A stretch of 64,000 nt of DNA from Marsupella aquatica (Eukaryota > Plantae > Marchantiophyta): NCBI GenBank assembly GCA_973895155.1, contig OZ316897.1:646515-710514 (forward strand). Reading direction: 5' to 3'. Below are positions 4,549 to 60,694 of this stretch, piece by piece. The position numbers were made by a program, and so were the translations under genes. Under the pieces are notes generated by a model. That model was given only the letters and a program-made list of their open reading frames with translations, did not search any database and was not told the DNA's origin. The stretch's first letter is position 1; each line of letters begins with the position of its first letter.

Positions 4549-7500
4549 TGTGATGCCTAGACAGGAATCACTCGGCCGGTTAAGTGGGTAAAGCAGGAAG
4601 GCACCCTAGGAACACCTTAGTATAGGGACAAAACAAGGAAAATATAAACAATTAGGGGCAACCATGGAACCCGGGCCGAGGCCGGAGGTAAGGCTGAGGG
4701 TGAAAACCCGATTAGGGTTAGGGCGCGTTAAGCGTCGGCGGCTAGGAAGGATCAACGGGAAGAAGGACCGGCAGAAGAGAGGGGTAAGGAGCGCTTGCAG
4801 GAGATGGTGGCTCATTTGCGAGCACGAACTAGGCAGACGACTATGGGAGGCCAACTACTGTCAGCTGCTTAGGCAAGCACTCGGGGAGAGAGTAGATACC
4901 GATGATCGACCTAAGGAGGGTATGAGCAACGTCAATCAAGCGGCACATTTCTGGGGATGCCTGTTTGAACGGGCAACTGAGTACATCAAGACTTACGAGG
5001 ACGAGGAATCAGAAAGGGCAGCTCGAGAACGGCAGGAGCTCGCTCGATTGTGGGAGCTGCAGAAGACGACTTTCTTAGGAGGCGAACTCATCAAGGACGA
5101 GTTCCTGTGGACGCCTACTTCCAATCAACTCGACGATCTTCTGTTTTGCAAAGACAGCGTCGTCGGCATCCGAGAGGCCATCAAGAACTGCAACGACATA
5201 CATTGGGAATTAAAGGGTAGCACGGAAAGGTGGACCCAGGCAACGGTGCTAGGAGAAACCTCCACGGCAGCAGAGATGAAGAGGAAGGGAGCCGTCAACG
5301 ATGAAGCCACCCCGGCAAAAAGAACGAGGTCGGCGGCACCAAAGAGGCCAGCCGAGCAGCAGAGCAGGAGGCAGGGAGAAGCCGAAGAGGAGGAGGTCGA
5401 TCCCATCAAGGCCATTCCAACCAGGGATGACACCTGGAAGGGCTGGGCGGCAACCCTACCGGTGGAGGTGCAACTACATTTTGCACGGGAGGAGGATGCA
5501 TGCTTTACGGCCATGCAGACCAAGAAGTACCAAGGCTTCATGGCCGGATCCGGCTTGGAGGCCTTTGTAAGATTACCATGGCTGAAGCCGGAGGTACCGG
5601 AGTCAGACCTATTAGAATTCGTGGGGTCATGGGAACCCGAGACCAATTGCACGAGGATATATGGGAAGGATTTCTATCTTACTCCCAAGGTAATTGCCGA
5701 AGTGTTTGGCCTGCCGATAGGCAATAAGACCAAAGTTGATACCAGGAAGACCTTGCCTGACAAGGAGTTCCGGTCGTTCCCCGGGCCATCAACGAAGAAT
5801 GGCTTCTTCCGGAACACCTGCACCAACCCGCACATAGGAGAGATGATCGACTTCTTGCGGGTGACCATGCATTGTAACTTGCCGAGGGCAGAGATCGGCA
5901 AGGCACAGGTCTATCTGGCAGAAAGGCCAGACCCAAGCCGGGACTACAACGGGTACCTCCTCAACCAATTGAAGAAGATCTTAAAGGAGGAGCAGCAGGT
6001 AATCGGCATGGGGAGCGTGTCGCGGCTGGGCTATCACATGCCGCTGTTGTGCCGGTATGCCAGAGGTCAGACTTTTGCCCCGGTACTTCCCCTGCAGGTA
6101 AGGGCACCCGAGGAAGCTCCAACGCCAAGGCCGTTGGCTGAGAAGCCTCAACCACCTGTTAGTCCTACGATCGAGCAGGTGTTTAGGCCCAGGAAGGAAG
6201 ACTTGCCGATGCAGCAACCATGCATGCAGAGTCTGCTGAAACTACTGGAGAAAGAAAAGAAATCGGCATCGGCAACAACAACGGCAACGGCAACAATGCA
6301 GGACACTACTACAGAGGTAGGCCTACACCGGCTCACAAGAGAAAACCCCTTTGCTGGAGACAAGGAGAGAATCAGGCCGGAATCCAAGCTAGGTGTTCGA
6401 ATGTACGTGGGAACCTCAAGCTCCGAATCTGAGGCAGAATTGCCTGAAGCTCCTACCGACGAAGAGGAGAGGGAGAAGCCGGACGTCCAAGAGGTAGAGG
6501 AGGCAGTGGAGGACTGCAGCCATGATAATTCCGGCTATGGGTCGGACCATCACGTTCCAGGAGTAAGGACCTGTGGCCGGTTTGTCCCCACACTTCCAAG
6601 GGTAGTGCGAGGGGACCCCAACCAGCAGAGTAGCCCTGAGTCTCCCCCACCAGATGTTGCTCCCCCGAGCTTCGACGGCATAAAACAGACGGTGCAGGAA
6701 TTTCAGGAGCGAATCAAGCAGGAGGAGGAGGCCGCCCTGGCTAAGGAAAAGGATTTACCAGGAGGAGATTGGCCGGAGGACATCAGGCGGCTAGCCAAAA
6801 AAGGAAGCAAACCTCTAGCCACGATTGAAGAGATCCGCAGGACGGCTTGGGAGCAGAGGCCGCGATGGGCGATGCCGATCACTTCTACTTACTCCACCTA
6901 CGCTAAGAATAGAGCCATGGAGTATGGTGAGATGTGTGGGGAACTTGTGCTCGGCATCTTTGGAGAGGAGTTGGAGGTAGGACCCTTTTTCCATAGGGAG
7001 CAGTTGGAGAAGCACCAATTAGAAGAAGCGGTGGCTTTAGAGAGAAGCAAGAAGGACGAGGTCATTCGGCGGCTTAGGAGGATGGAAGCCGAGATTGAAG
7101 ATCTAAGGGCGGCCAAGAAAGCCCAAGATGAACTGCGGATTAAACGACATGAGCTGAACATCATGCAGGGGCAGTTGGACACCGCGCAGGCTGATAATCA
7201 GAATATCAAGGATAAACTGACTCAGACGCAGGAAGAGTTGGCCGACACGATCAAAGAGAGGGAGAAGTGGAAGCAAGAGCTGAAGAATACAGAGGAGGCC
7301 CACATAACAGCCAACAGCCGGGCCATGGCGGAGACCCAAAGAAAGGAATGGGCGTTGAAAGGGGAGCTCGAGAAAATCCGCGGAGCCCTTGAGCAGAAGG
7401 AGGCCGAGTTAGGGAAATCCTATCAAGGGATTATGGCGCTGCAGCAGGAGCTTGCGTCCCTGACGGCCAGCTTCAAGGCCGACTTAAGGGAGAAGGACGA

Positions 7501-9217
7501 GATGCTCGAACAGACTTACGCCAAGATGAACCAGATGGAGTCTATCATCATTGCAGAGCTCGACAAGGAGCTAAAAGCAACCCAGGAGGAGAGGACTACC
7601 TTGAAACAAGAACGGGAGGAAGCCCAGAAGGAACTAGAGGAGGCACGCAAGGACCTGGATGAGACCCAGGAGGAGTTGGAGGAAATCACGAGGAAGATGG
7701 AGAACCTCCAGCGGCGGGCCGACAACCAAACGGAGCGGCTGAAGAAACAAGCCGCAGTATTTAAGTGCTTGTCTTCATCAGGCCCAACTCCAATTGGGGC
7801 AACCAAGTTACCAGGAGTGGTACTGGCCGAAGAAAAAGCCGCGCCAACTGCACCAGTGCCGGAGGTAAGTGGGAAGGGGAAGGGACCAGCTGCCGAACCA
7901 GAAAAGAAGAAAAAGCGGAAACCTTCAGGGTCAAGGAGTAATCCGACTCCACAAGCCGTGGTGACCAAAGAGGTAGAACCAGCACCATCCTCCGACATGA
8001 ATACGACAATAGATCCCGCTATGATCACAGGTAGGGATGGTGCGGCCCAAGCCGAACTACTCAGTAAGGAGGCCAGTATTCCAGATCCGCCTCTTGAGCA
8101 GGCCGGGGAGACCGTAGCCGAGGCTGAGGCCGTAACCGATTCTCGAGCCGATGCCGACGCCGATGGTGGACCCAGTCAGGCCGATGGAGAGTTGACTCAA
8201 TCAAGGGCAGGTAATCTGTCAGGGAATGAGCCTACGGCAGTGGCTGAGGAGGAAGCGTTGGGGGCGTCCATTAAGGATCCACCACCGGTGTCGTGACGGT
8301 GCAAGGGCGCCGTTCCTTTTAGGGAGGGCGGACGTGGAGGGAGGAGGCGTGAGTGGGCAGGGCGGGCGCGGATCTCCACGTTTAGGATTAGGATCAGAAC
8401 CAGGAGCGGCCCTGACACTTAGCTTAGTGGGATTGCGGTCCCACTGGTAGGAGCAACACTTGTGCTCCTGCCTTGCTGTACATAGGTAGATTCGGGCAAG
8501 TAGATTACTGTTAAGTAGATTAGGCTTACGATGCAAAGAATGGCGGATCCACTACCAGGATAAGTACCTAGGCAGCGGGGAGCTCAGGGCCTCTTCTTTA
8601 GCAAGTTTTTAGTTTGCACCAGCCGGGCTGGGATCAAGTAGTACGAGAAGCTCTCGGTTAGTCATACAGTGACCCTTGTGTATATTCATGTTTCCTCATG
8701 CCTAAGAGCTGAATAGAGTTGGCCTCACGGCTTAGTTCGCAGAACTTGTGTATGAGATGTACTGTTTGTATGGCAAGTGCATGGTATGACTCAGTCAGAA
8801 TGAGTCATTTTGCTATTTGTGTGTCGCATTAACTTGTGTGAAGAGTGCCCACATCAACAGAAGGAAGGAAAGTAAGCAGGGGAGTGAGAGTTGGATGTGT
8901 CGAGCTAAGAGAGGTCTTAGCGGCTTAACCAAGCCTATTGGGGATCATTCCGGCGGCGGAATCCAAACATACCTAACAAGACGGAGGGGAAGACAGGGGA
9001 AGACAGGGGAAGGCCTATATTAGGCCGGCTACGTATCTCATGACCCGATGAAGGATCTGTCCAGTATATGTGTGTAAAATGTTAATAGTAGTAGTAGAAG
9101 GTTAGCAGCGTCCCATGCCGCTAAGCCGCGGAAACGGCCTCGCCAAGCACGAAACCTGCGGGAATCGGCTTGAGCTGGGGGGTTTCTTGGGTTTAGGGAG
9201 CCATGGGACGCACCACA
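4549..9217 (+). mobile_element. ORF-bearing solo-LTR-like element, copy A1 (4669 bp)
   Basis: Termini TGTGATGC...GCACCACA (7/8 inverted). 5-bp TSD CTCCC (4544-4548, 9218-9222). Colinear, highly similar copy at 51872-56538. Confidence 0.93.
4664..8296 (+). CDS. 1210-aa LTR-encoded protein: N-terminal domain resembling plant retrotransposon accessory ORFs, long coiled coil, basic KKKKRK motif
   Basis: Uninterrupted ORF with motif GLEAFVRLPW..LLEFVGSW..TRIYGKDFYLTPKVIAEVFGLP. No gag, RT, RNase H or integrase motifs seen. Confidence 0.8.
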   Translation: MEPGPRPEVRLRVKTRLGLGRVKRRRLGRINGKKDRQKRGVRSACRRWWLICEHELGRRLWEANYCQLLRQALGERVDTDDRPKEGMSNVNQAAHFWGCLFERATEYIKTYEDEESERAARERQELARLWELQKTTFLGGELIKDEFLWTPTSNQLDDLLFCKDSVVGIREAIKNCNDIHWELKGSTERWTQATVLGETSTAAEMKRKGAVNDEATPAKRTRSAAPKRPAEQQSRRQGEAEEEEVDPIKAIPTRDDTWKGWAATLPVEVQLHFAREEDACFTAMQTKKYQGFMAGSGLEAFVRLPWLKPEVPESDLLEFVGSWEPETNCTRIYGKDFYLTPKVIAEVFGLPIGNKTKVDTRKTLPDKEFRSFPGPSTKNGFFRNTCTNPHIGEMIDFLRVTMHCNLPRAEIGKAQVYLAERPDPSRDYNGYLLNQLKKILKEEQQVIGMGSVSRLGYHMPLLCRYARGQTFAPVLPLQVRAPEEAPTPRPLAEKPQPPVSPTIEQVFRPRKEDLPMQQPCMQSLLKLLEKEKKSASATTTATATMQDTTTEVGLHRLTRENPFAGDKERIRPESKLGVRMYVGTSSSESEAELPEAPTDEEEREKPDVQEVEEAVEDCSHDNSGYGSDHHVPGVRTCGRFVPTLPRVVRGDPNQQSSPESPPPDVAPPSFDGIKQTVQEFQERIKQEEEAALAKEKDLPGGDWPEDIRRLAKKGSKPLATIEEIRRTAWEQRPRWAMPITSTYSTYAKNRAMEYGEMCGELVLGIFGEELEVGPFFHREQLEKHQLEEAVALERSKKDEVIRRLRRMEAEIEDLRAAKKAQDELRIKRHELNIMQGQLDTAQADNQNIKDKLTQTQEELADTIKEREKWKQELKNTEEAHITANSRAMAETQRKEWALKGELEKIRGALEQKEAELGKSYQGIMALQQELASLTASFKADLREKDEMLEQTYAKMNQMESIIIAELDKELKATQEERTTLKQEREEAQKELEEARKDLDETQEELEEITRKMENLQRRADNQTERLKKQAAVFKCLSSSGPTPIGATKLPGVVLAEEKAAPTAPVPEVSGKGKGPAAEPEKKKKRKPSGSRSNPTPQAVVTKEVEPAPSSDMNTTIDPAMITGRDGAAQAELLSKEASIPDPPLEQAGETVAEAEAVTDSRADADADGGPSQADGELTQSRAGNLSGNEPTAVAEEEALGASIKDPPPVS

Positions 9218-10459
9218 CTCCCCCACCCTCGGCGCCTCGCTTCCTTCAGCTCGCGGGGCTCCCCTCAAACGGGGGATTTAATCCCCCTTTCTTCTCCTGA
9301 ACGCGGCCCTATGCAGGGCTCGCGACAGCCTCCTCCCTGTCCAGCCCGGCTCCGGCTGCCCATAAAAAAAACTTCCCCCTAATCACACTGCCGGGGTCAC
9401 CTCTACTCAAAAACTTCCTTGCTCCCGGTCCTGTTTTATTTCTTCTCCCCACCAACCTTGCTATTGAGTTCTCTAAAAATGGCCCTAAAATAATGGGGAG
9501 TCCCCCAAAGGCAGGGCCCTCCGCCCAACATAATTGCAGAACAATCAGGGGATAAAAATAAATACAGTTCTTCGGTCACAGGTGATAGAATTAACTTAAA
9601 AAAAATTGAAAAAATGGTTATTTACAATGGTTATTTACACTGCGCGACACTCCGCGACCAAGTTATTCATGATTTTATGTGACGGGGACCCCGTAATACG
9701 ATACCAACGGTTTAAGCAAGGAAAAGTACGGTTTGCACGCATTAATCGTTGGATTGGCAAGTGACATGGACCTTGGGTGGGACCTAGCTAGTGTCACACT
9801 AGCAGGCCAAGGGACCCAACTATGGGTAGGAACCCCTAGGATAGACTCAATTTCCACTGACAGTACCCCATCTTTTACAATCAAGGCAGCCGAGCACCTC
9901 CGACACTGCAAGGCAACAGCCCGAATGTAGTCCAATTGCTCCTGTTCAGTGCAAGTTCGTAGGTCTGAAGCTCCTAGCCCCAACCAGACTGAAGCGCTAT
10001 CCTGAATCTCAGCACGAATGGGGGTTGCCTGCCTGAATACCGCATCAACAATGACAACATCAAAACCATATGTATCAACACCCTCCCCTGGATGGCCACA
10101 CACCTGCCGGCCAAGCTCCTTTGATGAGCCACAAATGCCTCCATGTCCTAGCCGATGTGAGCACGCTTTGTAAATAAAGCGTCGAGGATGGGGGAAGGTA
10201 GAATGAAAGTTCACAACATGAACCACAACATCTTGAAATTTAGCAGACTGCCCTGCTTCCACAACCTGCTCGACTTCTATCACAGGAGTCCCCATTCTTG
10301 TGCGTCAACAAAATCCTGCAAAACTACAAGTCCAATACTCAAATTAATACTCAAGGATTCCAGATGGATATTCAATGACGATGCCTTGCATACAGAACAT
10401 AACAGACAATCAATTATGTAGTGCCTGGTAGTTCACAAATCCTCAAGGTGTAACTACAC

Positions 10460-15415: not shown

Positions 15416-15464
15416 CTAGGGTCATTGTAGCGTGCGAGGAAACAGTAAAAAATTTCCTCGCACG
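15416..15464 (-). mobile_element. Helitron 3' terminus (element extends rightwards; 5' end not located)
   Basis: Perfect 12-bp hairpin cgtgcgaggaaa/tttcctcgcacg (15431-15464). On the minus strand it is followed after 11 nt by CTAG (15419-15416) and then T. Confidence 0.75.
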
Positions 15465-19275: not shown

Positions 19276-22200
19276 TTATTTTTTTTAATTGTTCGTTTAT
19301 TCCGCGTGAACCCCACGGATGGGGGGACCAAGCAGGCCAAAGAGGCAACAACACCTCAAAGAGGGCAAAAAGGACATACAAGAAACCAGTTCCTTGAGTT
19401 GTAAGTGAGGTCGAAAGACTAAACAAGGCAGGCAACTCAATCCAGAACTGTCAAACACATCAACATGCTACTTTTGAACTATTCTCTGCCCTGTCAATCA
19501 CATTTAGGCAAGGTCAACACAAAGAGGTGGTAGAGTTATGAACAGACCAGGATCTAACAGAGTTTTGCTACAATGAATCATGTTCATTGGTCATCCAGAT
19601 TCTACCTGTCTAACACCAGTCCTCAAAATTCTATCTCTTTCACCCTCCAAGAGTGAAACCGCACTAACCAATCGGGTATGCTTCCAGCTAGAGCCAGCTG
19701 TAGCAGCAACGACAGACAAATGATCTAGAGTCTCACAGATAGCTGAAATCGGGTTGAAAATACGTTTTTGGGATAGATCAAAGGTTTGTCCATTCCATGC
19801 TAGCCATATGCTACGAAGAATCTCATAGATCAGATAAACACGTAGCGTGCACAGAGGTGATTTCCGTCGACAGGACAAGAGGAGGCCAATAATAGTCACA
19901 GGTTGGTAAGTAAGCTCACCATTGAGCCATCTGCTAACCTCATTCCAACAGTTCCGCCGACATGTGAAAGAAAATGTGTGGAATGTTCTCCACCACTCCA
20001 CATCTGAGCGCACAGAGTCCATTAGACTTAGCAATTCGCAATGCTCTAGATCCTGAAAAGAGGCCCTGGGCAATAATCCTCCATAGAAAGGTTTTAGCCT
20101 TAGAGGAGAGGTCAGAGATCTAGAGTATCTGCCAGGCATCACTCCATTTAGAAATAGATAATGAAACTTCCCAGATCCTGTTGAGTCTGAGGTAGTCTGA
20201 TCCCTTAGTGCGCAGTAATTCGTAGATTCTATGGTTTGGTAAGGCAAAAGATTTGATTTGAGAATCCACATCATTCCAGTGCCACTTCCTAGCAGATGAA
20301 TCCAAATTGTTCCCAAGAAATACAGTTCTCTAAATTGCAGCAAAAAAGGCTAGGCAACAGGTCCTATTAACCTCGGTTAATCCACGTAGCCTTTGCATCC
20401 TATCAGTGAGGCACTTCCAATCGTTATGGGGTGCAGACCAGAAATCTTGGACTGTCCTCATCCCTAACCTGCCACAAACCATAACAACATCTGCCCTTGT
20501 CCTTTCAGAAAGATCATAGAATCCATGTAGACACCGGAGTAAGTCCTCAACTCCCCAGTGCCCCGGGAAAGCACTGGTAATTGGATAGAAAACCAAATGT
20601 CGTCGCACCTGCTCCCAGGCACTCCAGATCTGTCCAGTATAGGTAAGCTTACCAAAAGAGCGTGGAGTGCTCAAAAGTAGTTTATCCTGCAATGAGTAGC
20701 AATTCCTGCGCACTGTCTTGAAGTTACGCCATTTAGTCAGTAGTAAGTTTGCTGCATACATCTGCGACCACTCAGCCTCCGAATGATCCAAGGCCCCATT
20801 GAACCACTTGCTCAATAAGGCATCGGAATGACTGCAAAATTCCTTAAGTCCAAGGCCCCCATCTACCTTGGGTCGGCAGAGCTTGTGCCATGCAACCAGT
20901 GGTATCTGCTTCCCGCCCTGCTTGTTAATCCCCCACAGGAAGACCCAACTCAAAGCAATCAGTTTCTTGGCCAAGGCAGTAGGGGATTTAAGAAACATCA
21001 TATGATAAACAGGGATAGCCTGTAGAACATGTTTAACCAACAAGACACGGACCGTGAATGAAAGGAGCCGGGTTGTCCAGGAGGAGAGTCTAGCACTGAT
21101 GCGATCTAGAAAAAAGCAGTGCAGTTGTGCTTCTGAAAGACCAAATCCAAAAGGTGCCCCGAGATATTTCTGTATCTCCCCTTCCTTGCTAATCACACAA
21201 CCAGTGCTCTGCAGCCACACAGGAATCTCCTCCAGAGCTAGAGGCACAACCACCGACTTGCTCAGATTGAGCTTAGCACCTGTTGCACATTTGTAATAGT
21301 GGATAGCACATCTTGCCTGTTCAAAGGCCATTGCAGTGGCTGGGATAAAGAGGCCTAAATCATCCGCAAATAGCCTATAGCAAATGTTTAGTGTCCGGGA
21401 GATTTGTATCCCTTGTAGTCGACTAGCAGTAATCTCAGCCTTAAGGAAGTCCATAAGAGGCTGTGTAGAAATAGCAAAGAGCAGAGGAGAGAGAGGGCAG
21501 CCTTGCTATACCCCTCTGTGCATCTGAATGTCAGCAGTCCATAATCCATTCACCAAGGCCTTAGAGCAAGCATTACCGAGTAGAGATTTAACAAGGAAGA
21601 TGAAATGAGGTCCGATCCCTAACAAATACATGGTTTCCCAAATATACGAGTGATCTACCCTATCAAAAGCCTTTTCAAAATCCAATTTGAGAAAAAGCGA
21701 AGGAGTTCGAGTACAGTTGATCCAGTCGTGGGTGAGCCATGTGAGGGAGATGTTTTCCAGAATGTGTCTACCAGGTATGAACCCAGTTTGCTGAGGGCTA
21801 ATCAGCTTGGGCAGGAGTAATCTCAGACGTAGGGCCACCAATTTGGCAAGGATCTTGTAGGTGGTGGTCAACATTGTTAGTGCTCTCCAATCGCCCAGGA
21901 GGCGTTTGTCGGTTTTCTTTGGTATAAATCGAATTACCCCTTCCTTGATGCAGAAGGCCAGATTCCCAGTTCGCCAGAAATCACAGATCATAGCATGAAA
22001 GTTTGCTTGTAGAAAATGCCAACAAGCTCTGAATACCTCTGCCATCATCCCATCTATGCCAGGAGCCTTGTCATTAGGGAGTAGCATAAGAGTCTCTTGT
22101 AATTCGCGTGCAGAAGGAAGTTCCTTCAGCATTTTGATCTCTGCAGCCGATGGGGCAAAGTGAGTTGCTCGGGTCAGCACTCTACGTGCAGGTGCATCTT

Positions 22201-22344
22201 CCTAAGGGTCTCAGTATCCCGGTCTGGGGGTGAATACAGGTCTTCACAGAAAGTTTGTACCTCTCGTACGATAAGATTCTCATCACAAATTTCTCTCCCT
22301 CCTTCAGCTAACAGGTATTCCATTTTTTCTCTCTTTCAGCTAAC
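19276..22344 (-). mobile_element. 5'-truncated L1-type LINE
   Basis: 17-bp TSD AGGTCATCAAATGAATT (19259-19275, 22345-22361). Poly(T) on the plus strand at the left end. RT ORF2 remnants inside. Confidence 0.93.
19591..22340 (-). pseudogene. LINE ORF2 reverse transcriptase remnant
   Basis: KAPGIDG, QQTGFIPGRHI, KLDFEKAFDRV, GV*QGCPLSP, LFADD, KYLG. Stops and frameshifts present. Confidence 0.93.
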
Positions 22345-27325: not shown

Positions 27326-28617
27326 ATGTCTACATCCGATAGTTCCACATTGGATTCAGACTCTGACACAAGCTTGTCCGAGGAGGAGGTTCCTCCACCC
27401 CCTCCTCTTGACCGTCCTCGTGCTCCACTAGGGCCCATACCTTGCTGGTGTGTAAGATGCAAGGGACTTGTGGTTCGACATGCCTGGGAGACTTGTGAGC
27501 ACATTGAGAACTATGGTCGCCATGAGGGTGATATGCCAGGTTATTTGCCTAGCCAGGTAAATAATTATACATACATCCCCCCTTTCATTTCATGAAACGG
27601 CAATTGGTGAAATATTGTATATAATTAGCTTGCATTCAAATAACACTACTTAATTTATTGTGTGTTGAAATAGGTGCCTCATAGACCCCCACCTCCTTTG
27701 GTTGATGATGTTGTGTGGCTAGAAGGGTTTCTAGCAAGGGCAAGGGACTTGCTTGCATCCCCCCTTGCCCATCCACCTCTTAGCCCCCTGCTCCTATCCC
27801 CATAGTCGAGCATGTAGAGGGTGAACCGGTCTCTCGACCGGAGGTTGGGTGTACAAGAGTCCTACGTACACGACCACGGTCTCGCAGACGTAGACGGCAA
27901 TATGAGCCACTGGAACAGGTAGACAACAGGGAGGAGGTGTTAGGCAGTGCCCGACCATCCAACAACGTAGATTATATTGGGGTTGACGGACGGTTTGGAG
28001 CATCTTATCTCACTGGTAGGGCAGCCGACGTTTTGAAAGACTTTGATCCTAGTCTCTTCAAATTTCAAGACTACATTCCTATTAATGAACCGGTTGAGAT
28101 ATGGGGTCGCTCTTGGATAGTGAAAGATTCCTCCATTGGTGCTGATATAGGATATGGTCTATATGCTTTGGAGGACATTATTGTCCCTCCAAAGCCATGG
28201 AGACGTGGCTATGATGGAGAGCACCTTTTCCCTTACATTGGAGCTGTATACAACGCTAAGAGTTGGAACATTTTGTTGCGTCAACACCCAAGTTGGGGGG
28301 TGTACGCATTAAGGATGGACTCAGACCCAGACGAGGTCTTCACTAGGCCGTGGCATTGTAGGATGATTGATGGTGACCCTGTTCGGAATTGTAATTTAGC
28401 AGGGTACATCAATAGTACCACGGGTAGAGGTAGAGATTTGGAGGCTAATGTAGAGTGGATCCAGATGTTTGGTCCACCTAGAGCTCCATATTTTGTGAAA
28501 CATATGGATGATCACATCATGACGGTCGCTGTTAGGACCATTAGAGCTGGTGAGGAGTTATTGTGTGATTATGAGTGGGATGCACCAAAATTGTCCCTAT
28601 GTTCCCGTCCAAGATAG
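27326..28617 (+). CDS. SET-domain protein inside the CACTA; probable first exon 27326-27557 with a Cys/His motif and a frameshift near 27780
   Basis: IGYGLYALEDI, NLAGYINST..ANVE and AVRTIRAGEELLCDY are SET signature motifs. Upstream exon has PCWCVRC..EHIENYG, followed by GT..AG (27558-27672). Confidence 0.8.
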
Positions 28618-28779
28618 TTTCTTGGACTTACATATATACATATATATATCGGATTCTTTTCCATTTTTAACATTGGATAATTGGTTGTTCACAATATTGA
28701 TGTTGATGAGATTGCATGCATTGATGTTGTATGATAGAATCAATATGTGGTGCCTGATATTGGGGTAATATCATGAGCT

Positions 28780-40200: not shown

Positions 40201-40310
40201 TATATGCATACAATTTTGCACTTTTGACAAATAACCAAATAGCAGCAAAAACAAAGAAGATCATAGAGGCTGCTATTTTAGAGCAAGGTTCTGTATCTTC
40301 AGAAGATTGA
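36219..40310 (+). pseudogene. Sola-like DDE transposase
   Basis: IDGMDQ, LYLQLDNTTRENKN, FLLVGHTHDQIDQMFS. Cys clusters CCDKFC and FSTCGPC. One frame from 36219 with stops at 37137, 38481 and 38574. Phase-1 intron 38605-38709. Confidence 0.85.
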
Positions 40311-47684: not shown

Positions 47685-48061
47685 GATGGAACGATGTGTG
47701 GAGGGGGAAAACATGCCCAATTATAGGGCATGGAAATAAGCCTAAATAACTTGCATGCATGCCCTAGCTAGCTAGCTAGCTTGCATATATATGTGATGCT
47801 GAAATTGGTGAAAACCACACCTGTCGGCACGTCTAATAGCTCTAATGTAGAGTCACTTGTATAACTATAACCTAATTGCCTTAAGTGTGTTATATTTGCA
47901 ACTTCCCAAATAGTTGTAAACATGACTACCCAAAACTTGCCCAAAACTCAGTCAACAAGGTGTGACTAATATGACACCAACAACCTTGGAGTCGCTTATT
48001 GAAGAAGGTCTCATACAAGTCATGTAGGGGAGGGTCTCAGAATGGGTGGGTTTCTTCTAGT

Positions 48062-49717
48062 GTCATGTGTAGGGTAGTCTGTATGAAGTTAAGCCGCTCT
48101 ATACAAACTAAGTTGGTACATGATCCCTACTTATACCCGTTGTCCGTCTTTCCCTCGGGTTTGAAGTGCCGGGGTGTATACTCCTTATCCCAAATTCGGA
48201 GTTCAACCAACACAGGCAAGGTTGGCAGACAAAATATATGTGCCAACTGATACTCCGTAAGTGATAGGGTCTGTCCTGAAACCTTGGTGGCTGCCGCATC
48301 AATGTCAAAGTTGGAGATGAACTCATAAACCTCCTTTGGCCCGGCTACACTAGGCCTCCATAGCAAGTGAGCAAACTTCTCCAACTGATGCTCCTTAAGG
48401 TAGCCCGCCTGGTCTGGTTTCTTGATGGCGGTCCAGACTATTTTGGGGATGCGGATTACCTGCAATAGGTCCGACTGTCGATGGTTGGAGGGCCATCGGG
48501 ACTGGTTGGTCGGCGGGTTGGCTGGGGTGGGAACGGGGGCGACATTAGTCCGCGCGGTTGGTTTTGGACCCTGCGTATTCCTTGCCCGCTTACGGGAGTG
48601 TTGCTCCAATTGCGGACTAACTCGTCCGTCAAAACCTGAAGAGCACTCGGTGTTGTTCACCGGACGGACCTAGGTTTGGTTTGGCGGTACGCCGGTAGTC
48701 GTAGGCCAAGTGGTCGGGGGTGCCGTCGGAGTAGCCATATCCCAATCGAAGGTGTTGGAGCTTTCCTCGAGAAACGTGAGATTACGCACCACTTCCTGTT
48801 GTCTACTGATGTCTTCTTCACGCTTCTTGGCTACAATCTGCTGGTCGATGTAACCCGAAATCTTGTTGAACTCCGCTTGAGTGAGCTTTTGGCTGCCCTT
48901 CAGCCTAAAGAACTTTGTGGGGACTTCAAGAATTGCCTTTGCTACCGATCTAAGTCCCTCCTCGCTGAGATATAGCTCGGTGATGTAGTCCCGCAGCTCG
49001 TTGTAGCTCAAATCCCTGGTGATGGCTATCTTCTCACAGTTAACCTGTGCTACCTTGGCCACCAACTTCGCGTATCTTTGTTCGTAGGCGGCTTTCTTGG
49101 GGCAAGAGTACCAATAAGTCTCGAAGAACTTAGCACCTACCTCGCCAAACAAGGTCCAAAATTCCAAGGCTGTAAGGGTCATACTAACCTTGCAATCTGG
49201 TTTGTCAAGTCTGCATCCCCGCCCGACAGTTTTGCTTGCTGGTGGAGGCCTTCCTCACCCTGACTAAATCTTGCCACAATCCGCTCTTAACCTTCGATAA
49301 TTTCCCATAAAAGTTAGCTCGATCTGAGCAAAATGCGAGAGTGGGTGGCAGCGTCCGTGAATTCCAAAAACTATGAATGAGAAAATGGGTTGCGGCGCCA
49401 TCGACTCAGCTCTTATGGAGGTGCCAGGGTGAGCTCAAGCGTGAGAAGGCGAGGCCATTTTAGTCATCAATACTGGCTCGAAGTTGGGTGTCTTGGTCCA
49501 AGCGTGATCTCCTAACGGATTTTTACTCCGCCGCCGCCACCGTACCTCAGCCGATTGTTATAACTTCCTTTCCTTAATTCATAATCATTCAGTCAACTAA
49601 CCTACTCCTAATCTATTCATAATGGCAAAGTCGGCTATTCGTACTACTCTACGCTACGGCTACGGTCCTAATGACCGTATAAGTCCTAATCTAGGATTGG
49701 CGTCCTATTTAGTGACA
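48062..49717 (-). mobile_element. Truncated ORF-bearing LTR (unit D)
   Basis: Begins TGTCAC on the minus strand at 49717. ORFs 49182-48670 and 48660-48127 contain YLKEHQLEKFAHLLW..VYEFISNFD..TKVSGQTLSLTEYQLAHIFCLP..DNGY, homologous to the unit A ORF. Similarity ends at TTLHM (~48064). Confidence 0.65.
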
Positions 49718-50222
49718 CGTTACCCGTGCCACATCCTCTCTTTTTCTTCTTCTTCATACTTGTGGCGTCCACTGGAACCACTGCCTTTCCACTCTCCCCA
49801 GGGTTCCTGGATCTGGTGTATTTTCCACACCAGTGTTAGCTTTAGAGGCCGCCTGAGGAGTAGCATCATCTTTTACATCAATGGTGGCATCCAACTTCCT
49901 TCCCCTTGAAAGACATAGATACATTACTAAACGGAACTGGTTCTAGTAATAGCGCTTGGCGCTAGTATCAATAGGGGAAAAACATCTCATATGAACAAGA
50001 GCACAAATCCCTAACTGAATCCTATGGGGCATACTTACATTTTTTAAGAGAGCAAGTTGATTCACTAGGAGCTGCAGATTCATTCTTGGCCTTCACTCTT
50101 GGCTTTCGGCTCCGATCAACATCCACAACAATTGTCTTGCATTTCTTCTGTAGCTCCATTGTCGACACGTCCACTTCAATTGCAAGACCCTGCTTCATCT
50201 CCGAGACATACCTTGCTGGGAT

Positions 50223-50711
50223 TTATGACTCTTGCAACTTCATGAAAGCGTCTTTCTCCACCTCGTCGAAAGGCAGATCCCATTTGTTAGTGTCTAAATA
50301 CCATGGGCAGTGGAGTCTCTCCCACTCTGACAAGACGCGGGGTGGAAACTTTCCCTCAGCTGGGTACATTGAATACAGATCAACAAGATGGTCATCATCT
50401 TTTATCATCACCCACTTTTTAAATGCACCAGGGTAAGCCCACAAAACCTCTGGAGATCGCAACTCCATCCACATGTAGAAATAGTAAAGGTATTGTTTGG
50501 CTCGTTTCCGGTTCCGCTCAGTGTAGTCCTCCTTGTCTACATACTTTGACAGCCACATTATGTTGAAAAATTTAGCCTTGACAAGGTCTCCAAATGATTT
50601 GAATTCTTCAATAATGGACTTCATGAGAAAATCCAGCAACTCACAACCAGACTTCACGAGATGATCATTTGGCATGCGGTCTAAAACCTGCTCCAGAGAG
50701 GTCAGGATCAA
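50223..50711 (-). CDS. Unassigned ORF fragment (162 aa, aromatic-rich)
   Basis: Protein-like composition, abutting the integrase fragment. No motif recognised. Confidence 0.3.
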   Translation of the reverse strand: MILTSLEQVLDRMPNDHLVKSGCELLDFLMKSIIEEFKSFGDLVKAKFFNIMWLSKYVDKEDYTERNRKRAKQYLYYFYMWMELRSPEVLWAYPGAFKKWVMIKDDDHLVDLYSMYPAEGKFPPRVLSEWERLHCPWYLDTNKWDLPFDEVEKDAFMKLQES

Positions 50712-51871
50712 TTATTCCACGAAGGAGCGAGAGTTATTCCACGTAGGAGAGGGAACGCCTACGTGGTACGGCTCAATAATCACCTTCCTCTTAACAGGCC
50801 GCATCCCTGACGACATCAATCAGGAGGCCGCTGCTGTGTTTCTATGGAAGGCCGGACCATATGTCATGATACAGGGGCACTTACACAAGGAAGGAGTTAA
50901 CGGGAAACTACGATGCTGCTTAGGGTATGAGGAGACGCTCATCGTTATGCGGGCATTGCATGAAGAAGAAGCTAGAGGCCATTTTGCGGCTATCACGACA
51001 GCCCAAAAGATCTTGGATTTGGGATATTGGTGGCCTACGTTGCATCAGGATGTACAAAGCTTTATCAAGGGATGCGATTTGTGCCAACGGGCTGGCGCCC
51101 CAAGAGGAACCCACAATCACCCCCTCACTTCCGTACTTCCACTTGCACCATTCGAAAAATGGGGCATTGATTACATTGGGCCGTTCACTCTAGTTACACG
51201 AAGATGCAGATGCAGGTACATCTTGCTAGCCATCAACTACTCCACCAAATGGGTCAAAGCCCGGGCTACGGTGAAAGACGATGCTGCAACAAGCGCCAGG
51301 TTCTTATATGAACAGATTTTCACTCGCTTTGGGCCACCTCTGGAGCTAGTCAGCAATCGGGGAACGCATTTCATCAATGACACCATCGTGCGCCTCACGG
51401 AATGATACCTGGTCAAGCACCACAAGACCACCCTGTACCACCCAAAGGCAAATGGTCTGACAGAAAGCACAAATGGTATTATTGGGAAAATTCTCAACAA
51501 AACCGTAGCCGCGCATAAAACCGATTGGGATTTGACAAATTATACGCTGTTGTGTACTCCTACAATTTGGCGTACAAGACTACCACGAGTCACTGTCCGT
51601 ACTTCCTCATGTTTGGGCAACATTCGTTGGTCCCAGTTGAGTTTGAGATCCACACACCATGAGTCAGCATTCGGGATCGCTTATCCAAAGCCGATAGTTC
51701 CTCGAATAGGGCTTACCAAATTGAAGCCCTAGAAGAAGCTTGCCTACTAGCAGCCAGGCATGCGGGTAAGCAGCAGGTAGCTTCCAAGAAGCAGCACGAC
51801 AAGGGACTATGGAAGGTAGACGTCGTGACGGGCGACCTGGTCCTTCTGTATGACAGTAGGTACATGCAATT

Positions 51872-54800
51872 TGTGATGCCTAGACAGGAATCACTTGGCC
51901 AGTTAAGTGGGTAAAGCAGGAAGGCACCCTAGAAACGCCTTAGTATAGGGACAAAACAAGGAAAATATAAACAATTAGGGGCAACCATGGAACCCGGGCC
52001 GAGGCCGGAGGTAAGGACGCTGGGGGTGAAAACTCGATTAGGGTTAGGGCGCGTTAAGCGTCGGCGGCTAGGAAGGATCAACGGGAGGAAGGACAGGAAG
52101 AGGAGAGGGGTAAGGAGCGCTTGCAGGAGATGGTGGCTCATTTGCGAGCACGAACTAGGCAGACAACTATGGGAGGCCAACTACTGTCAGCTGCTTAGGG
52201 AAGCACTCGGGGAGAGAGTAGATACCGATGATCGACCTAAGGAGGGTATGAGCAACATCAATCAAGTGGCACATTTCTGGGGATGCTTGTTCGAATGGGC
52301 AACTGAGTATATCAAGACTTACGAGGACAAGGAATCAGAAAGGGCAGCTCGAGAACGGCAGGAGCTCGCTCGATTGTGGGAGCTGTAGAAGACGGCTTTC
52401 TTAGGAGGCGAACTCATCAAGGACGAGTTCTTGTGGACTCCTACTTCCAATCAACTCGACGATCTTCTGTTTTGCAAAGACAGCGTCATCGGCATCCGAG
52501 AGGCCATCAAGAACTGCAACGACATACACTGGGAATTAAAGGGTAGCACGGAAAGGTGGACCCAGGCAACGGTGCTAGGAGAAACCTCCACGGTAGCAGA
52601 GATGAAGAGGAAGGGAGCCGTCAACGATGAAGCCACCCCGGCAAAAAGAACGAGGTCGGCGACACCAAAGAAGCCAGCCGAGCAGCAGAGTAGGAGGCAG
52701 GGAGAAGCCGAAGAGGAGGAGGTCGATCCCATCAAGGCCATTCCAACCAAGGATGACACCTGGAAAGGCTGGGCGGCAACCCTACCGGTGGAGGTGCAAC
52801 TACATTTTGCACGGGAGGAGGATGCATGCTTTACGGCCATGTAGACCAAGAAGTACCAAGGCTTCATGGCCGGATCCGGCTTAGAGGCCTTTGTAAGATT
52901 ACCATGGCTGAAGCCGGAAGTACCGGAGTCAGACCTATTAGAATTCGTGGGGTCATGGGAACCCGAGACCAATTGCACGAGGATATATGGGAAGGATTTC
53001 TATCTTACTCCCAGGGTGATTGCCGAAGTGTTTGGTTTGCCGATAGGCAATAAGACCAAAGTTGATACCAGGAAGACCTTGCCTGACAAGGAGTTCCGGT
53101 CGTTCCCCGGGCCATCAACGAAGAATGGCTTCTTCCGGAACACCTGCACCAACCCGCACATAGGAGAGATGATCGACTTCTTGCGGGTGACCATGCATTG
53201 TAACTTGCCGAGGGCAGAGATCGGCAAGGCATAGGTCTATCTGGCAGAGAGGCCAGACCCAAGCCGGGACTACAACGGGTACCTCCTCAACCAATTGAAG
53301 AAGATCTTAAAGGAGGAGCAGCAAGTAATTGGCATGGGGAGCGTGTCGCGGCTTGGCTATCACATGCCGCTGTTGTGCCGGTATGCCAAAGGTCAGACTT
53401 TTGCCCTAGTACTTCCCCTGCAGGTAAGGGCACCCGAGGAAGCTCCAAAACCGAGGCCGTTAGCAGAGAAGCCTCAACCACCTGTTAGCCCTACGATCGA
53501 GCAGGTGTTTAGGCCAAGGACGGAGGACTTGCCGATGCAGCAACCAGGCATGCAGAGTCTGCTGAAACTACTGGAGAAAGAAAAGAGATCGGCATCGGCA
53601 ACGACAACGGCAACGGCAACAATGCAGGACACTACTCCAGAGGTAGGCCTACACCGGCTCACAAGGGGAAACCCCTTTGCTGGAGACAAGGAGAGAATCA
53701 GGCCGGAATCCAAGCCAGGTGTTCGAATGTATGTAGGAGTCTCAAGCTCTGAATCTGAGGCAGAATTGCCTGAAGCTCCTATCGACGAAGAGGAGAGGGA
53801 GAAGCCGGACGTCCAAGAAGTAGAGGAGCCAGTGGAGGACTTCAGCCATGATAACTCCAGCTATGGGTCGGACCATCACGTTCCAGGAGTAAGGACCTGT
53901 GGCCGGTTTGTCCCCACACTTCCAAGGGTAGTACGAGGGGACCCCAACCAGCAGAGTAGCCCTGAGTCTCCCCCACCAGATGTTGCTCCCCCGAGCTTTG
54001 ACGGCATAAAACAGATGGTGCAGGAATTTCAGGAGCGAATCAGGCAGGAAGAGGAGGCAGCCCTGGCTAGGGAAAAGGATTTACCAGGAGGAGATTGGCC
54101 GGAGGACATCAGGCGGCTAGCCGAAAAAGGAAGCAAGCCTCTAGCCACGATTGAAGAGATCCGCAAGACAGCTTGGGAGCAGAGGCCGCGATGGGCGATG
54201 CCGATCACTTCTACTTACTCCACCTACGCTAAGAATAGAGCCATGGAGTATGGTGAGATGTGTGGGGAACTTGCGCTCGGCATCTTTGGAGAGGAGTTGG
54301 AGGTAGGACCCTTTTTCCATAGGGAGCAGTTGGAGAAGCAACAATTAGAAGAAGCGGTGGCTTTAGAGAGAAGCAAGAAGGACGAGGTCATTCTGCGGCT
54401 TAGGAGGATGGAAGCCGAGATTGAAGATCTAAGGGCGGCCAAGAAAGCCCAAGATGAACTGTGGATTAAACGGCATGAGCTGAACATCATGCAGGGGCAG
54501 TTGGACACCGCGCAGGCTGATAATCATAATATCAAGGATAAACTGACTCAGACGCAGGGAGAGTTGGCCGATACGATCAAAGAGAGGGAGAAGTGGAAGC
54601 GAGAGCTGAGGAATACAGAGGAGGCCCACATAACAGCCAACAGCCAGGCCATGGCGGAGACCCAAAGAAAGGAATGGGCATTGAAGGGGGAGCTCGAGAA
54701 AATCCGCGGAGCCCTTGAGCAGAAGGAGGCCGAGTTAGGAAAATCCTATCAAGGGATTATGGCGCTGCAGCAGGAGCTTGCATCCCTGACGGCCAGCTTC

Positions 54801-56538
54801 AAGGCCGACCTAAGGGAGAAGGACGAGATGCTCGATCAGACTTACGCCAAGATGAATCAGATGGAGTCTGTCATCATTGTAGAGCTCGACAAGGAGCTAA
54901 GAGCAACCCGGGAGGAGAGGGCTACCTTGAAAAAAGAACGGGAGGAAGCCCAGAAGGAACTAGAGGAGGCGCACAAGGACCTGGATGAGACCCAGGAGGA
55001 GTTGGAGGAAATCACGAGGAAGATGGAGAACCTCCAGCGGCGGGCCGACAACCAAACGGAGCGGCTGAAGAAACAAGCCGCAGTATTTAAGTGCTTGTCT
55101 TCATCAGGCCCAACTCCAATTGGGGCAACCAAGTTACCAAGAGTGGTATTGGCCGAAGAAAAAGCCGCGCCACCTGCACCAGTGCCGGAAGTAAGTGGGA
55201 AGGGGAAGGGACCAGCTGCCAAACCAGAAAAGAAGAAGAAGCGGAAACCTTCAGGGTCAAGGAGTAATCCGACTCCACAGGCCGTGGTGACCAAGGAGGT
55301 AGACCCAGCACCAACCTCCGGCATGAATACGGCAATAGATTCCACTATCATCAAGGGTGGGGATGGTGCGGCCCAAGCCGAACTACTCAGTAATGAGGCC
55401 GGTATCCCAGATCCGCCTCTTGAGCAGGCCGGGGAGACCGTAGCCAAGGCTGAGGCCGTAACCGATTCCCGAGCCGATGCCGACGCTGATGGTGGACCCA
55501 GTCAGGCCGATGGAGAGTTGACTCAGTCAAGGGCAGGTAATCTGTCAGAGAACGAACCTACGACAGTGGCTGAGGAGGAAGCGTTGGGGGCGTCCATTGA
55601 GAATCCACCACCGGTGTCGTGACGGTGCAAGGGCGCCGTTCCTTTTAGGAAGGGCGGACATGGAGGGAGGAGGCGTGAGTGGGCAGGGCGGGCGCTGATC
55701 TCCAAGTTTAGGATTAGGATCAGGACCAGGAGCGGCCCTGACACTTAGCTTAGTGGGATTGCGGTTCCACTGGTAGGAGCAACACTTGTGCTCCTGCCTT
55801 GCTGTACATAGGTAGATCCGGGCAAGTAGATTACTGTTAGGTAGATTAGGCTTACGCTGCAAAGAATTAGGCGGATCCACTACCAGGATAAGTACCTGGG
55901 CAGCGAGGAGCTCAGGGCCTCTTCTTTAGCAAGTTTTTAGTTTGCACCAGCCGGGCTGGGATCAAGTAGTAAGAGAAGCTCTCGGTTAGTCATACAGTGA
56001 CCCTTGTGTATATTCATGTTTCCTCATGCCTAAGAACTGAATAGAGTTGGCCTCACGGCTTAGTTCGCAGAGCTTGTGTATGAGATGTACTGTTTGTATG
56101 GCAAGTGCATGGTATGACTCAGTCAGAAGGAGTCATTTTGCTATTTGTGTGTCGCATTAACTTGTGTGAAGAGTGCCCACATCAACTAACAGAAGGAAGG
56201 AAAGTAAGCAAGGAGTGAGAGTTGGATGTGTCGAGCTGAGAGAGGTCTTAGCGGCTTAACCAAGCCTATTGGGGATCATTCCGGCGACGGAATCCAAACA
56301 TACCTAACAAGACCAAAGGGAAGACAAGGGAAGGCCTAGATTAGGCCGGCTACGTATCTCATGACCCGATGAAGGATCTTTCCAGTACATGTGTGTAAAA
56401 TGTTAATAGTAGTAGTAGAAGGTTAGCAGCGTCCCATGCCGCTAAGCCGCGGAAACGGCCTCGCCAAGCGCAAAACCTACGAGAATCGGCTTGAGCTGGG
56501 GGGTTTCTTGGGTTTAGGGAGCCATGGGACGCACCACA
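51872..56538 (+). mobile_element. ORF-bearing solo-LTR-like element, copy A2 (4667 bp)
   Basis: Same termini as A1. 5-bp TSD CAATT (51867-51871, 56539-56543). Confidence 0.93.
51987..55622 (+). pseudogene. Copy of the 1210-aa ORF with three premature stops
   Basis: CAG>TAG at 52386, 52842 and 53232 relative to A1; frame otherwise kept. Confidence 0.9.
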
Positions 56539-56732
56539 CAATTTCCGGGGAAGCTTCATACTCGCTGGCTGGGCCCATTCCTGGTGAATCAAATCTACCC
56601 AAACGGATCTCTAGACCCCGCGACGTACACCGACGATTTACTTCCCACACGAGTTAGTTACGATTGTGTGAAAAAGTACCACCACCAGGACGATGATGCC
56701 GATAGTGATGTTTGCGAGGATGCTTCACAATT

Positions 56733-56745
56733 AAGCAGGGAGCTA
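56733..56745 (+). promoter_or_regulatory. Putative polypurine tract
   Basis: aagcagggagcta lies between the integrase end and TGTGACACC. Confidence 0.55.
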
Positions 56746-59700
56746 TGTGACACCTCCAGCATGGTGGTTAATGATTGATTTGGCCTAGCCGTGCGTAGCA
56801 CGCTTGTTAGGGGCACCGTAGGCCGTAGTTATTAGCATAATGACACTAAGTAGGTAGTACTTATGACTAGGGAATCATTAGTTAATAAGGGACATTTACG
56901 TTCGGGATGGCGGCGGAGCACCATTTGTACTCCTAGGTTACGAGCATGTAAGGGGACACTTCGGGTCCGTATAACAAAATTCTTGAAGGCGGCCACTGAC
57001 ACAATCTGAACCGGACCCGCAAGTGGCCAGTATAGTGGGAGTGTGAAAAGCTCGGCCTATGGGAAGAGAGGAGGGGCCAGTCAGACGATGAGCCCTCAAA
57101 GTATAAAAGGAGGGCCATTCTCTTGCATTACGCTCACACTCCATTCTGCGTGCCAACTTTGCCACTTCATTCCTCCTTAGTAGCCCACCGTCACTCCTGG
57201 ATGCCTGTCACGATATTGTCCAGTTTGGCCCTTCAATTTTGGCTGCAATTCCTATCCGTAGGAAGTCACTTAGCCAAGTCCTTAGCCGAAGTCAACCCGC
57301 ACTGATACGAGACCGAACGAGCTTACAAGAGAGCCATTTGTTTAGCTGGCCAAAATCACTATAACCACGACTTCGCCCTCTCTTTTCAGAGTGAGCTTTG
57401 CCGAGTCGACAAAATCAGCAAATACTTCTTCGTTGATGAGAAGTACGTTGGATTTTGGGAAGCCCTTCTTCGGCTTCCGGACAAGGTTTACCATCTCCCG
57501 GGCACAATAGACTTGAAGCCACACCATTACGACCATACCCCCGCCCGGGTTCAAGCCTCCATCGACTATTCGTTCAGCCCTACTCAAACAAGTGAGACTC
57601 CCATCCTAACATCACTTGACTTCCCCAAGAACTACCTGAATCTAATGACGCCTCCGCCAGTTGCAACTGGCGCCCACCAATCCGTGTCCGCACCAACACC
57701 GCCTTGGCCTCAGCCAAGCCGATCCCCACCACCGGTCGCACCACCTCTCCGAGTACAATCCGTGGTGAATGCGGTAAATATTAGCTCCAAAGACAAGGAA
57801 GCTCACCCTCCTCTGAATCGACGGCCGCGGGGTACGACTCAACAGGCGCCAAGCAACCCGGCGCCACTCCAGCAAGCCCGAGGGGTTAACACGGTGACTC
57901 TGGTGGCCCCGGCACCAATACTCACGGTAGTAGCGCTACCACCGCCTGACCGGGAGGAAGGAGAGATATCCCCCTCTCTAGTCACCCCAGGAATTAGTCT
58001 TGGGGTAGAAAGAGAAAGGAACCCGCAGCTATATTGGGGTTGCCTTTGGCCACGGTTGTAGTGGCCAAGCTGACCATGCATCGCATGGGGGAGAATGTTC
58101 ACAAGAACATCCTCCACCCCAACCCTGCATGCTATCTGAAGACCCAAGGGTTTGAGCACCTCGCCTCTCTCCCTTGGAATGGAAGCAGGTACTACGGACA
58201 GGATATGACGGAGTTCATCCAGAACTTTGACGAGGCCCGCCAACAAACCCGAGCACACGAGAGAGTGATGTGTCTCAATGAGGCACGTTTGAAGATGATT
58301 TTCGGCCTACCCGAGGGGATAAACCGGGTAGAGTCGCGGGCTCTTGGGGGCAAGGGAGCTAAATACCAGTCTTCTAGCTTCCCAACCGAGGGAGCTGTGG
58401 ACAATGGATTCTTGATGAGGATGTGCCTCATCCCGGAGGTAGCTAAACGCCTGGAGTTCCAGCGGTATGCCCTCCATATGATGGAACCACGCGGCGAAAT
58501 AACCGCCACCCAGGTCATACAAGTAGAGAACTTTCAGCCTAGGAAGTGGGCATCCTTCTTCGTTAAGAAGCTCCACGAAGAGATGGAGCGGAGAAGGAAG
58601 ACGTTGTACATTGGTGGAAAGGCGTACTTTGCGAGCCACATCAAGATTATCATCAAATGGTATGCCCGTTTTGACCGCCGAAGCCTTCCCCGTTGCAACG
58701 AGATGGAATTGACTCCGTCAAAGTGGGTATTCCCAGCTCAAGAGAGGCAACCACAACCCGAAGCCCAAAGCCTGGCAGCCGCAAGACCTACTTCTCCGGC
58801 CTCGCAACCAGCCACTACTGCCCCACCAAGCGTACCCATGGACGCAATTATCGCGACCTTGGAAGCGATCAATCGGGTCAACGCAATCAAAGTCGGGCCG
58901 ATTGAGGCCGGACCCGTACCCGACACTACGGTGGCCAAGGAGATTCCGCCACCCCCCACGGCCGTGCAGGAGGACCGCACGGAGGAACCAGTCCCTTTGA
59001 CCGACTTACCTCAAGGGCTGGATGTTTCCACTCCTACTCCCTCGCGGGTTGGGGTCTGCCTGTGCCCGAATCTAGATGGACATAGTCTGGACCATCCGGA
59101 ACTCTTTGCGCCAGGCACGTTTCTGAATGGGTTGTTGGGAGATTTCTCACAACAGATCTCACGGGATACCAGGGAATACATGGCACGGAAGGTGGCCTAC
59201 TTCTTCAACCAGGAGTTGGTTGCGGCTGTGAAGGTAGGACATGCGCAGGCGGAGATAGCGCAGAGAATAGAGCGATACCGGGTTGAGTCTGCCTATTTGA
59301 AGGACGAAGTGGCAACCCTGGAGACTGAACTCCAGCAACTGCGACCTCAAGTAATGGCCACGGAGGATTAGGTTGTCGAGGCAAGGGCCCGGGCAGCCTT
59401 AGCAAAGCAGGCCGGGCTCAGAAAGGACTCCGAGATCGCAAGGCTCCGGACCAAGATTGATGGTTTGAAGGGAGAAGCCGTCAGTTGGCAGAAGGATCTA
59501 GAGGAAGCTGACTCTTGATCTTAGCGGGACGCAGCCAAGATTGACACCCTGAAGACAGAGGTAGCACGGCTTTAGGGAGAGGCCATGAAGTAGGCCCAAT
59601 TGGTGGATAAGCTGACGAGCGACGTCCAGCAATTGGAGGAGGCATGTCAAGAGGCCGCGGAAGAGGCGGACGCGGTGAAGCGTGAGAACAAATCTCTGCT

Positions 59701-60694
59701 GGACCAGGTCCAGCTACTCAAGCAAGATACTGACAGGCTCAGGAGGCAGCGGGATAGCCGCTCCCACTCGGGCGTCTCTGGCAAGTGTGCCAAGCATTAG
59801 CGGTTGAGTAGGATTAAAATAGAGGTAGGAGTAGCTAAATTGGGCTATAGGGACAAGCGCTTGCCCTAGTTAAAGCGGCGCTGCCATACTGTCCAGCCTA
59901 CGTAGATTAGGATCTTCTAATAAGACAAGCCATTTTCTGGCCTGACAGCCAGCTTAGTTAGGATCTTAGTTAGCGAATCTACGGGCGTGAGGCCGCTCTG
60001 GTCCTCAACCCTTAGTATTTAGTGCACCCCTCGGTAGAGGCAGAGGGGTTTTTAGTCTCAGAGTCGGACATCCGCGGTATGTGCGGGGAGTCCCAACCTC
60101 TGTGAGTGAAAAAGTACCAAGGGGAGGGGGTAAGACTAAGCTCGCTGGGCGAGTGCGGAGCCGGGCTCCGTTGTAGTGTACACCCTCGGCCTTGGGCCTG
60201 TTCATTCAAGAGATTTTGGGTCAACTAAGTGTATGTGTATGTCCACTATGTAAGTAAAACCCTTTCCCATTATTTCCTTCGTGTAAATCAAGATTGTATG
60301 CTTGTGCATGTGCATACGTGTGAATCTTGTGTATGGATGCCAACGCTTGGGCGAACACCCTACCTGAACCGTGCACGGGGTGCAGCTTGCGGGTAAGTGG
60401 TTGTGAGCACAGGTTGAGTAACTTTATCATCGAATCCGGATCGAAGGCATCCAACACGAAGGCTTAGAAGCCCATAAGTTGGGATCGATCCTACTATTGA
60501 CTAAGGTACGTTCCGGCGGCGGAACACAAACCATACCTAGGAGGTGTCCGTACATAATAGTAGATGCACTTAGCACTAGTTTACATGAGTTAGGTGCATT
60601 CCGTGCTTCCCTCCCTGCCCGAACCCTCATATTTACGAAGGATGTGCATGTCTAAGCCGAAGCCCGGGTTAAGGCCTAGGCTGACAACGTGACA
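56746..60694 (+). mobile_element. Putative 3' LTR (~3.95 kb) containing an ORF (unit C)
   Basis: TGTGAC start follows the purine tract. It ends GTGACA exactly where an unrelated tandem repeat resumes mid-unit (agtat|tttcctcttcaagc). Confidence 0.72.
57513..59800 (+). pseudogene. LTR-encoded ORF homologous to the unit A ORF
   Basis: YLKTQGFEHLASLPW..MTEFIQNFD..TRAHERVMCLNEARLKMIFGLP..DNGF, then coiled coil. Frameshift near 58040 and several stops after 59369. Confidence 0.8.

Follow-up and report, generated by a model that had tools for sequence, protein, structure and literature searches.

We analyzed a 64,000-nucleotide stretch of the liverwort Marsupella aquatica (contig OZ316897.1, positions 646,515 to 710,514 of the forward strand; hereafter the window), a repeat-dense region with remnants of long interspersed nuclear elements (LINEs), CACTA transposons and gypsy retrotransposons. 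Four units in the window, A1, A2, C and D (Table 1), carry related large open reading frames (ORFs), in part broken. With moderate confidence, we propose that these units are long terminal repeats (LTRs) of a gypsy lineage with a gene of predicted VANC-like core fold inside the LTR, and that the product is likely a nuclear DNA-binding protein that would protect its own elements from silencing.

Table 1. Features of the window and layout of the A1 protein (TSD, target-site duplication)
Feature	Position	Strand	Remarks
Unit A1	4549..9217	+	likely solo LTR, 4669 bp, TG..CA, TSD CTCCC; nested within unit B
TATA-like box of A1	4643..4648	+	unit position 95; 21 bases upstream of first ATG
Intact 1210-codon ORF of A1	4664..8296	+	78% of unit A1
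29-nt non-coding motif	8948..8975	+	near 3' end of A1; 90% identical to C positions 3766-3794; candidate cis element
Unit A2	51872..56538	+	likely solo LTR, 4667 bp, TSD CAATT; ORF with 3 in-frame stops
Gypsy pol remnant of the C-host element	50680..56745	+	RNase H fragment and integrase, split by A2; short purine tract at end
Unit C	56746..60694	+	likely 3' LTR, 3949 bp, TGTGAC..GTGACA; TATA-like box at position 357
ORF of unit C	~57306-59800	+	broken, homologous to A1 ORF; TG-rich block behind
Unit D	48040..49733	-	likely LTR of a third family, 5' portion only; starts at 49733, truncated near 48040
ORF of unit D	49254-48040	-	broken, homologous; TATA-like box at unit position 317
Unit B	630..9766	-	4463 bp without nested A1; TG..CA, TSD TGGAC; own coiled-coil-rich ORF
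A1 protein, N-terminal domain	~aa 88-200
A1 protein, VANC/PMD-like predicted core	~aa 275-475
A1 protein, Pro/acidic linker
A1 protein, heptad-periodic coiled-coil region	~aa 800-1050
A1 protein, basic patch	aa 1081

Units A1 and A2 align end to end over their full length with 95.9% identity, and their TG..CA termini form a short inverted repeat (8/10 nt). An earlier note on this DNA, made from the letters alone, had described them as units of about 4.67 kb with different 5-bp TSDs, lacking pol and each mostly filled by a 1210-codon ORF. Lengths and TSDs were borne out, and no pol domain was detected in the A1 ORF; the filling ORF was found in A1, whereas in A2 it is interrupted at codons 133, 285 and 415, with no frameshifts. 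The longest frame in 300 shuffles of A1 averaged 176 codons and never exceeded 434, as against 1210 in the real sequence. We also compared the two A copies for the ratio of nonsynonymous to synonymous substitution rates (dN/dS), a check put forward in the earlier note, and found a synonymous excess: 61 of 137 substitutions are synonymous where a context-preserving null predicts 45.3 (p=0.0025), with dN/dS of 0.36 uncorrected and of 0.51-0.56 once transitions are weighted. Constraint on the ORF is strongest in the core domain (dN/dS 0.14-0.23; 10/15 substitutions synonymous, p=0.038). No such excess is seen in codons 1-87 (2/8), so translation may begin at a later Met, with the caveat that this segment holds eight substitutions only. 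At least 25 ORF variants from contigs were also classified and then set aside, most of them being private to A1. Judged by these substitution patterns, the ORF is a selected protein-coding gene, intact in A1.

The ORFs of C and D are homologous to that of A1 at the protein level: A1 matches C over aa 292-467 (25% identity, E 3e-12) and D over aa 271-406 (27% identity, E 1.7e-9), and C matches D with 33% identity (E 2.8e-12). At the DNA level, similarity of C and D to A1 is almost nil despite the shared core domain. The N-terminal domain is common to the units in the sense that 5/8 pairs beat all 500 shuffles, while 3/8 did not. Thus, both homologies proposed in the earlier note stand, as do the TGTGAC..GTGACA bounds of C and its place behind integrase and a purine tract, with two amendments: (i) the C ORF is broken, with a frame change near 58000-58060 and several stops after 59368, and (ii) the start of D had to be corrected to the minus-strand position listed in Table 1.

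TATA-like boxes lie 5' of the ORF at 95 (A1), 357 (C) and 317 (D) bases from the unit 5' end, a TG-rich block follows the ORF in A1 and C, and weaker TATA-like boxes occur near the 3' end of the units. With a TATA-like box ahead of the ORF and a TG-rich block behind it, each LTR could, judged by these motifs, be a complete expression cassette. Because TATA-like boxes are found both upstream of the ORF and near the 3' end, the ORF may lie in U3 with its own promoter, as does sag of mouse mammary tumour virus (MMTV), or within an R region of unusual length. A comparison among the four units brought out the 29-nt motif common to A and C (blastn E 0.001); in the non-coding parts, motif enrichment gave nothing above shuffles and no enriched 7-mer.

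Unit ends and their flanks

In the window, C follows directly on an integrase C-terminus (PF17921 Integrase_H2C2, E 2.3e-11) and the short purine tract, a putative polypurine tract (PPT). The 5' end of this host element lies outside the window. Its integrase tail is short and without a Pfam chromodomain, and its reverse transcriptase (RT) is absent from the window; the gypsy lineage is probably non-chromoviral. In place of the RT region stands an ORF without a Pfam match (50223-50711, minus strand), upstream of D's purine tract. The right end of C is fixed independently, since the flanking repeat resumes exactly at 60695. Terminal direct repeats, which would betray short true LTRs within the units, were absent from A1 and C, in line with the earlier note; the longest repeats of any kind were 28 and 25 nt, at 72-79% identity.

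Further evidence came from contigs of public sequencing runs. Sixteen runs were listed for A1 under four organism labels, of which 14 contain part of the unit and 6 at least half its words; contigs from five of the 16 (X1, X2, X4 and X6 among them) were used, and there was no RNA run among the 16. Eight contigs of X4 and one of X6 match C from exactly 56746 and continue leftward into mutually unrelated sequence. In this test, made on unit C only, the same 5' terminus is therefore found behind integrase and PPT in the window and at unrelated flanks elsewhere. As the left end of C is not always behind integrase, a short true LTR at its right end is contradicted. These junctions bear on the view that we are dealing with an ordinary extra ORF of the internal region, placed as in Athila between pol and a short 3' LTR, with the units being deletion derivatives. 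A sense ORF located between pol and the 3' LTR is a known arrangement (PMC7264820, PMC6317226), and the Atlas leads for the protein were Transposase_32 and ATHILA. Against it, the PPT is found at C's 5' end, ahead of the ORF; this reading is largely refuted by C's flanks and the missing terminal direct repeats, and we regard it as very improbable.

A second unit type starts behind the same kind of pol end. The sequence preceding D in the window is 20/20 purines, and in contigs of X1 and X4 a C-type integrase tail and PPT are followed by the sequence with which D starts; its other end and TSD were not found in the window.

For family A, the evidence comes from both insertion sites and right flanks. 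In an X2 contig, 4543 is joined to 9218; five letters at the joint match both sides, and the contig represents the empty site of A1. The insertion point of A2 is the integrase C-terminal region of a C-family element, and its empty site, integrase without A2, is seen in X2 as a loose end before 56542. Pooled loose ends behind A's right end lead mostly into unique flanks; GCTAGA is common there at offset 9-14 in 4/4 runs, and a shared run of six letters arose in 0/200,000 shuffles. One X1 contig continues directly behind A's right end with four T and then TGGCGCTA, a primer binding site (PBS)-like motif and putative match to tRNA-Asn. The sequence behind A's right end fits the rule that TGG lies within 0-5 bp of the LTR end (PMC6317226), a signal that we count as supportive rather than conclusive because the runs disagree in the first eight consensus letters and are not independent of one another. 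Other X2 contigs link A's right end (window 9217) to A-internal positions 8363, 6045 and 6612, which suggests A copies within other A copies, or partial tandem duplications. The exact A-end pattern was found in 0 viral contigs and 0 JGI metagenomes, and at P0028 loci 74 pattern matches yielded 0 confirmed.

Could the A-type units instead be a separate non-autonomous class, moved as single TG..CA units by a gypsy integrase or another DDE enzyme, with C behind a PPT by chance? Both A copies in the window stand alone with TSDs, the right flanks are many and differing (16+7 contigs in X1, 35+15 in X2, 13+7 in X4), no family-A pol was seen, and unit B, which is of comparable size and build, carries 80-bp terminal inverted repeats as DNA transposons do. 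This reading is improbable in our judgement, as C is found both behind integrase plus PPT and at unique flanks, D-type units start behind the same integrase-PPT, a PBS-like motif follows A's end in some contigs, and the terminal inverted repeat of A is short. Based on the contig ends, we infer that LTR-LTR recombination left A1 and A2 behind as solo LTRs. The earlier note's central claim, gypsy LTRs with an accessory ORF inside, thus holds as far as the end junctions and the lack of short internal LTRs go; B drops out of the family, and no family-A gag-pol region was seen in the window or contigs. Taken together, the gene very probably lies inside the LTR.

Predicted fold and possible role of the protein

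Sequence searches placed the protein in no described family. Pfam gave nothing informative on the A1 ORF (two weak coiled-coil-type matches below cut-off) or on 116 shorter frames, and a sequence profile had 0 matches in the PDB. Hidden Markov models (HMMs) of the PMD, DUF1985, Transposase_32 and ATHILA families matched 0/22 members at E<=10 and 0/19 proteins at E<=1. A full-length protein search returned 0/7994 candidates at E<=0.001, and a profile search for longer, fused forms 0/3306, the latter being weak evidence; near the ORF length, the profile found 2/7996, both from Calypogeia. The only homologues that could be named come from the leafy liverwort Calypogeia fissa, where they are recorded as unnamed proteins.

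Foldseek with the A1 model gave 0 matches at E<=0.001 against PDB and BFVD. The predicted core fold aligns with VANC21 (PDB 9LNK/9LNJ) over ~198 residues at 8-9% identity, and this sole solved-structure match is a DNA-bound anti-silencing protein of a transposable element (TE). On the strength of the model, the core domain likely shares the VANC/PMD-superfamily fold. The coiled coil is predicted to serve oligomerisation.

The earlier note named no function for the protein. We favour a scheme in which the LTR-encoded product is a nuclear, oligomeric, DNA-binding protein that, by analogy to VANC, a TE anti-silencing system (PMC5735166), would protect cognate elements from silencing. Hypothetically, the product would bind LTR motifs sequence-specifically, and solo LTRs could supply relief from silencing in trans. 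Two points weigh against this scheme: host PMD proteins promote silencing rather than oppose it, and no repeated target motif stood out in the non-coding parts of the units. An anti-silencing role, proposed here by analogy, is a tentative assignment of roughly even standing, falling slightly short of that. Alternatively, the gene inside the LTR may act elsewhere in the element's life cycle, for instance in integration targeting, chromatin tethering, RNA export or the assembly of particles, roles of the kind put forward for other plant extra ORFs. We regard this as unlikely: the solved-structure match favours anti-silencing, the predicted core fold coincides with the most constrained part of the ORF, and an env-like version is disfavoured because the A1 protein has no transmembrane helix (top 19-residue hydropathy 0.95).

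The anti-silencing scheme has a stronger form, which we consider rather doubtful: a VANC-like sequence-specific anti-silencing gene would sit between LTR promoter and poly(A) signal, every solo LTR, usually regarded as a product of host disposal of retrotransposons, would be a stand-alone trans de-repressor, and the VANC/PMD fold would be an accessory module of retrotransposons that predates the PMDs of angiosperms and the VANCs of eudicots.

Other elements in the window

Unit B, into which A1 is inserted, has an 80-bp terminal inverted repeat (79/80 identical). The earlier note had counted it as a weak homologue, a claim that found no confirmation: the HMM score of the B ORF against A/C/D fell below shuffles, hhalign gave a probability of 0.1, and the scores of four pairwise tests were reached by 87, 53, 55 and 13 of 300 shuffles. 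With three kinds of test showing no homology, B was rejected as a family member for now and left out; it may be another LTR or TIR (terminal inverted repeat) element. Its upstream region is GC-rich and repeated, and its ORF belongs to no detected family.

Between 36201 and 45600, an N6_N4_Mtase ORF (41381-42499, minus strand; PF01555, E 1.2e-8) neighbours a DUF7869 ORF (38670-40310) and other large unnamed ORFs, with 111-bp and 90-bp tandem arrays on either side; the region is possibly a transposon with a 4mC/6mA-type DNA methylase. A CACTA transposase (Transposase_21, DUF4218, DUF4216) occupies 27784-31966, with a SET-domain ORF (27784-28617, E 2.5e-5) in front, and a broken LINE-type reverse transcriptase (RVT_1) lies at 19591-22201 on the minus strand.

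Comparison with known systems

LTR-LTR recombination is the main route of retrotransposon removal in plant genomes. A gene within the LTR escapes it: because of this placement, the gene would be doubled in each element and survive solo-LTR formation, as the intact A1 illustrates. If the product opposes silencing, solo LTRs would be active helpers rather than dead scars. The finding also suggests a function, open to test, for the extra ORFs that have long gone unexplained in plant gypsy elements. In practical terms, copies of this kind probably pass as unnamed host proteins in annotations, as in the Calypogeia entries, which were seen as protein records.

The closest precedent in placement is MMTV sag, an ORF in U3 of the LTR (PMC9412291). 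As proposed for our units, a protein gene lies within the LTR, with an LTR-internal promoter, twice per provirus and kept in solo LTRs. MMTV differs in being a vertebrate retrovirus with an unrelated superantigen, whereas here a plant gypsy lineage carries 1210 codons without a transmembrane helix, in either U3 or R. Our literature search on LTR-internal ORFs found, among the papers it listed, no plant retrotransposon case and MMTV as the relevant match; Steinbauerova 2011 and the VANC21 structure paper lay outside that search and may bear on novelty.

In fold, the nearest systems are VANC21 of VANDAL21 (PDB 9LNK/9LNJ; PMC5735166) and the PMD of MAIN/MAIL1 (PMC5418596; 10.1101/2024.09.27.615353), which resemble the A1 protein in the predicted core fold, in being TE-encoded and in the coiled coil. 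VANC proteins are encoded by Mutator-like DNA transposons (VANDAL) and described as dicot-specific (PMC13547354), whereas the present units are TG..CA units tied to a gypsy integrase; PMDs are described from angiosperms, and identity in the aligned core is as low as given above. The fold link would extend the VANC/PMD superfamily beyond flowering plants, its described range so far, into gypsy elements of liverwort type, and it bears on whether PMD arose in a gypsy element or a host gene, a question left open in PMC5418596.

Finally, non-chromoviral plant Ty3/gypsy elements have extra ORFs such as Athila ORF1 (PF03078), the Ogre PMD (PF10536) and Retand Transposase_28 (PMC6317226, PMC7264820, PMC11963269). 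These are likewise large accessory ORFs with a globular domain and coiled coil, probably of the same fold superfamily, and LTRs of up to ~5 kb are known; these sources describe them as internal to the element, either ahead of gag or between pol and the 3' LTR, whereas the ORF here most likely lies inside the repeat and has no Pfam match. Retrosat2/RIRE3/RIRE8 of rice (PMC3485330) resemble our units in LTRs of over 3 kb, abundant solo LTRs and an additional ORF without known function, but their ORF0 is described as lying upstream of gag-pol rather than in the LTR, and they belong to the chromoviral Tekay group. Long LTRs and extra ORFs are thus known already from non-chromoviral gypsy elements; what sets the M. 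aquatica units apart from these is the probable placement of the ORF inside the LTR, a layout that may recur elsewhere.
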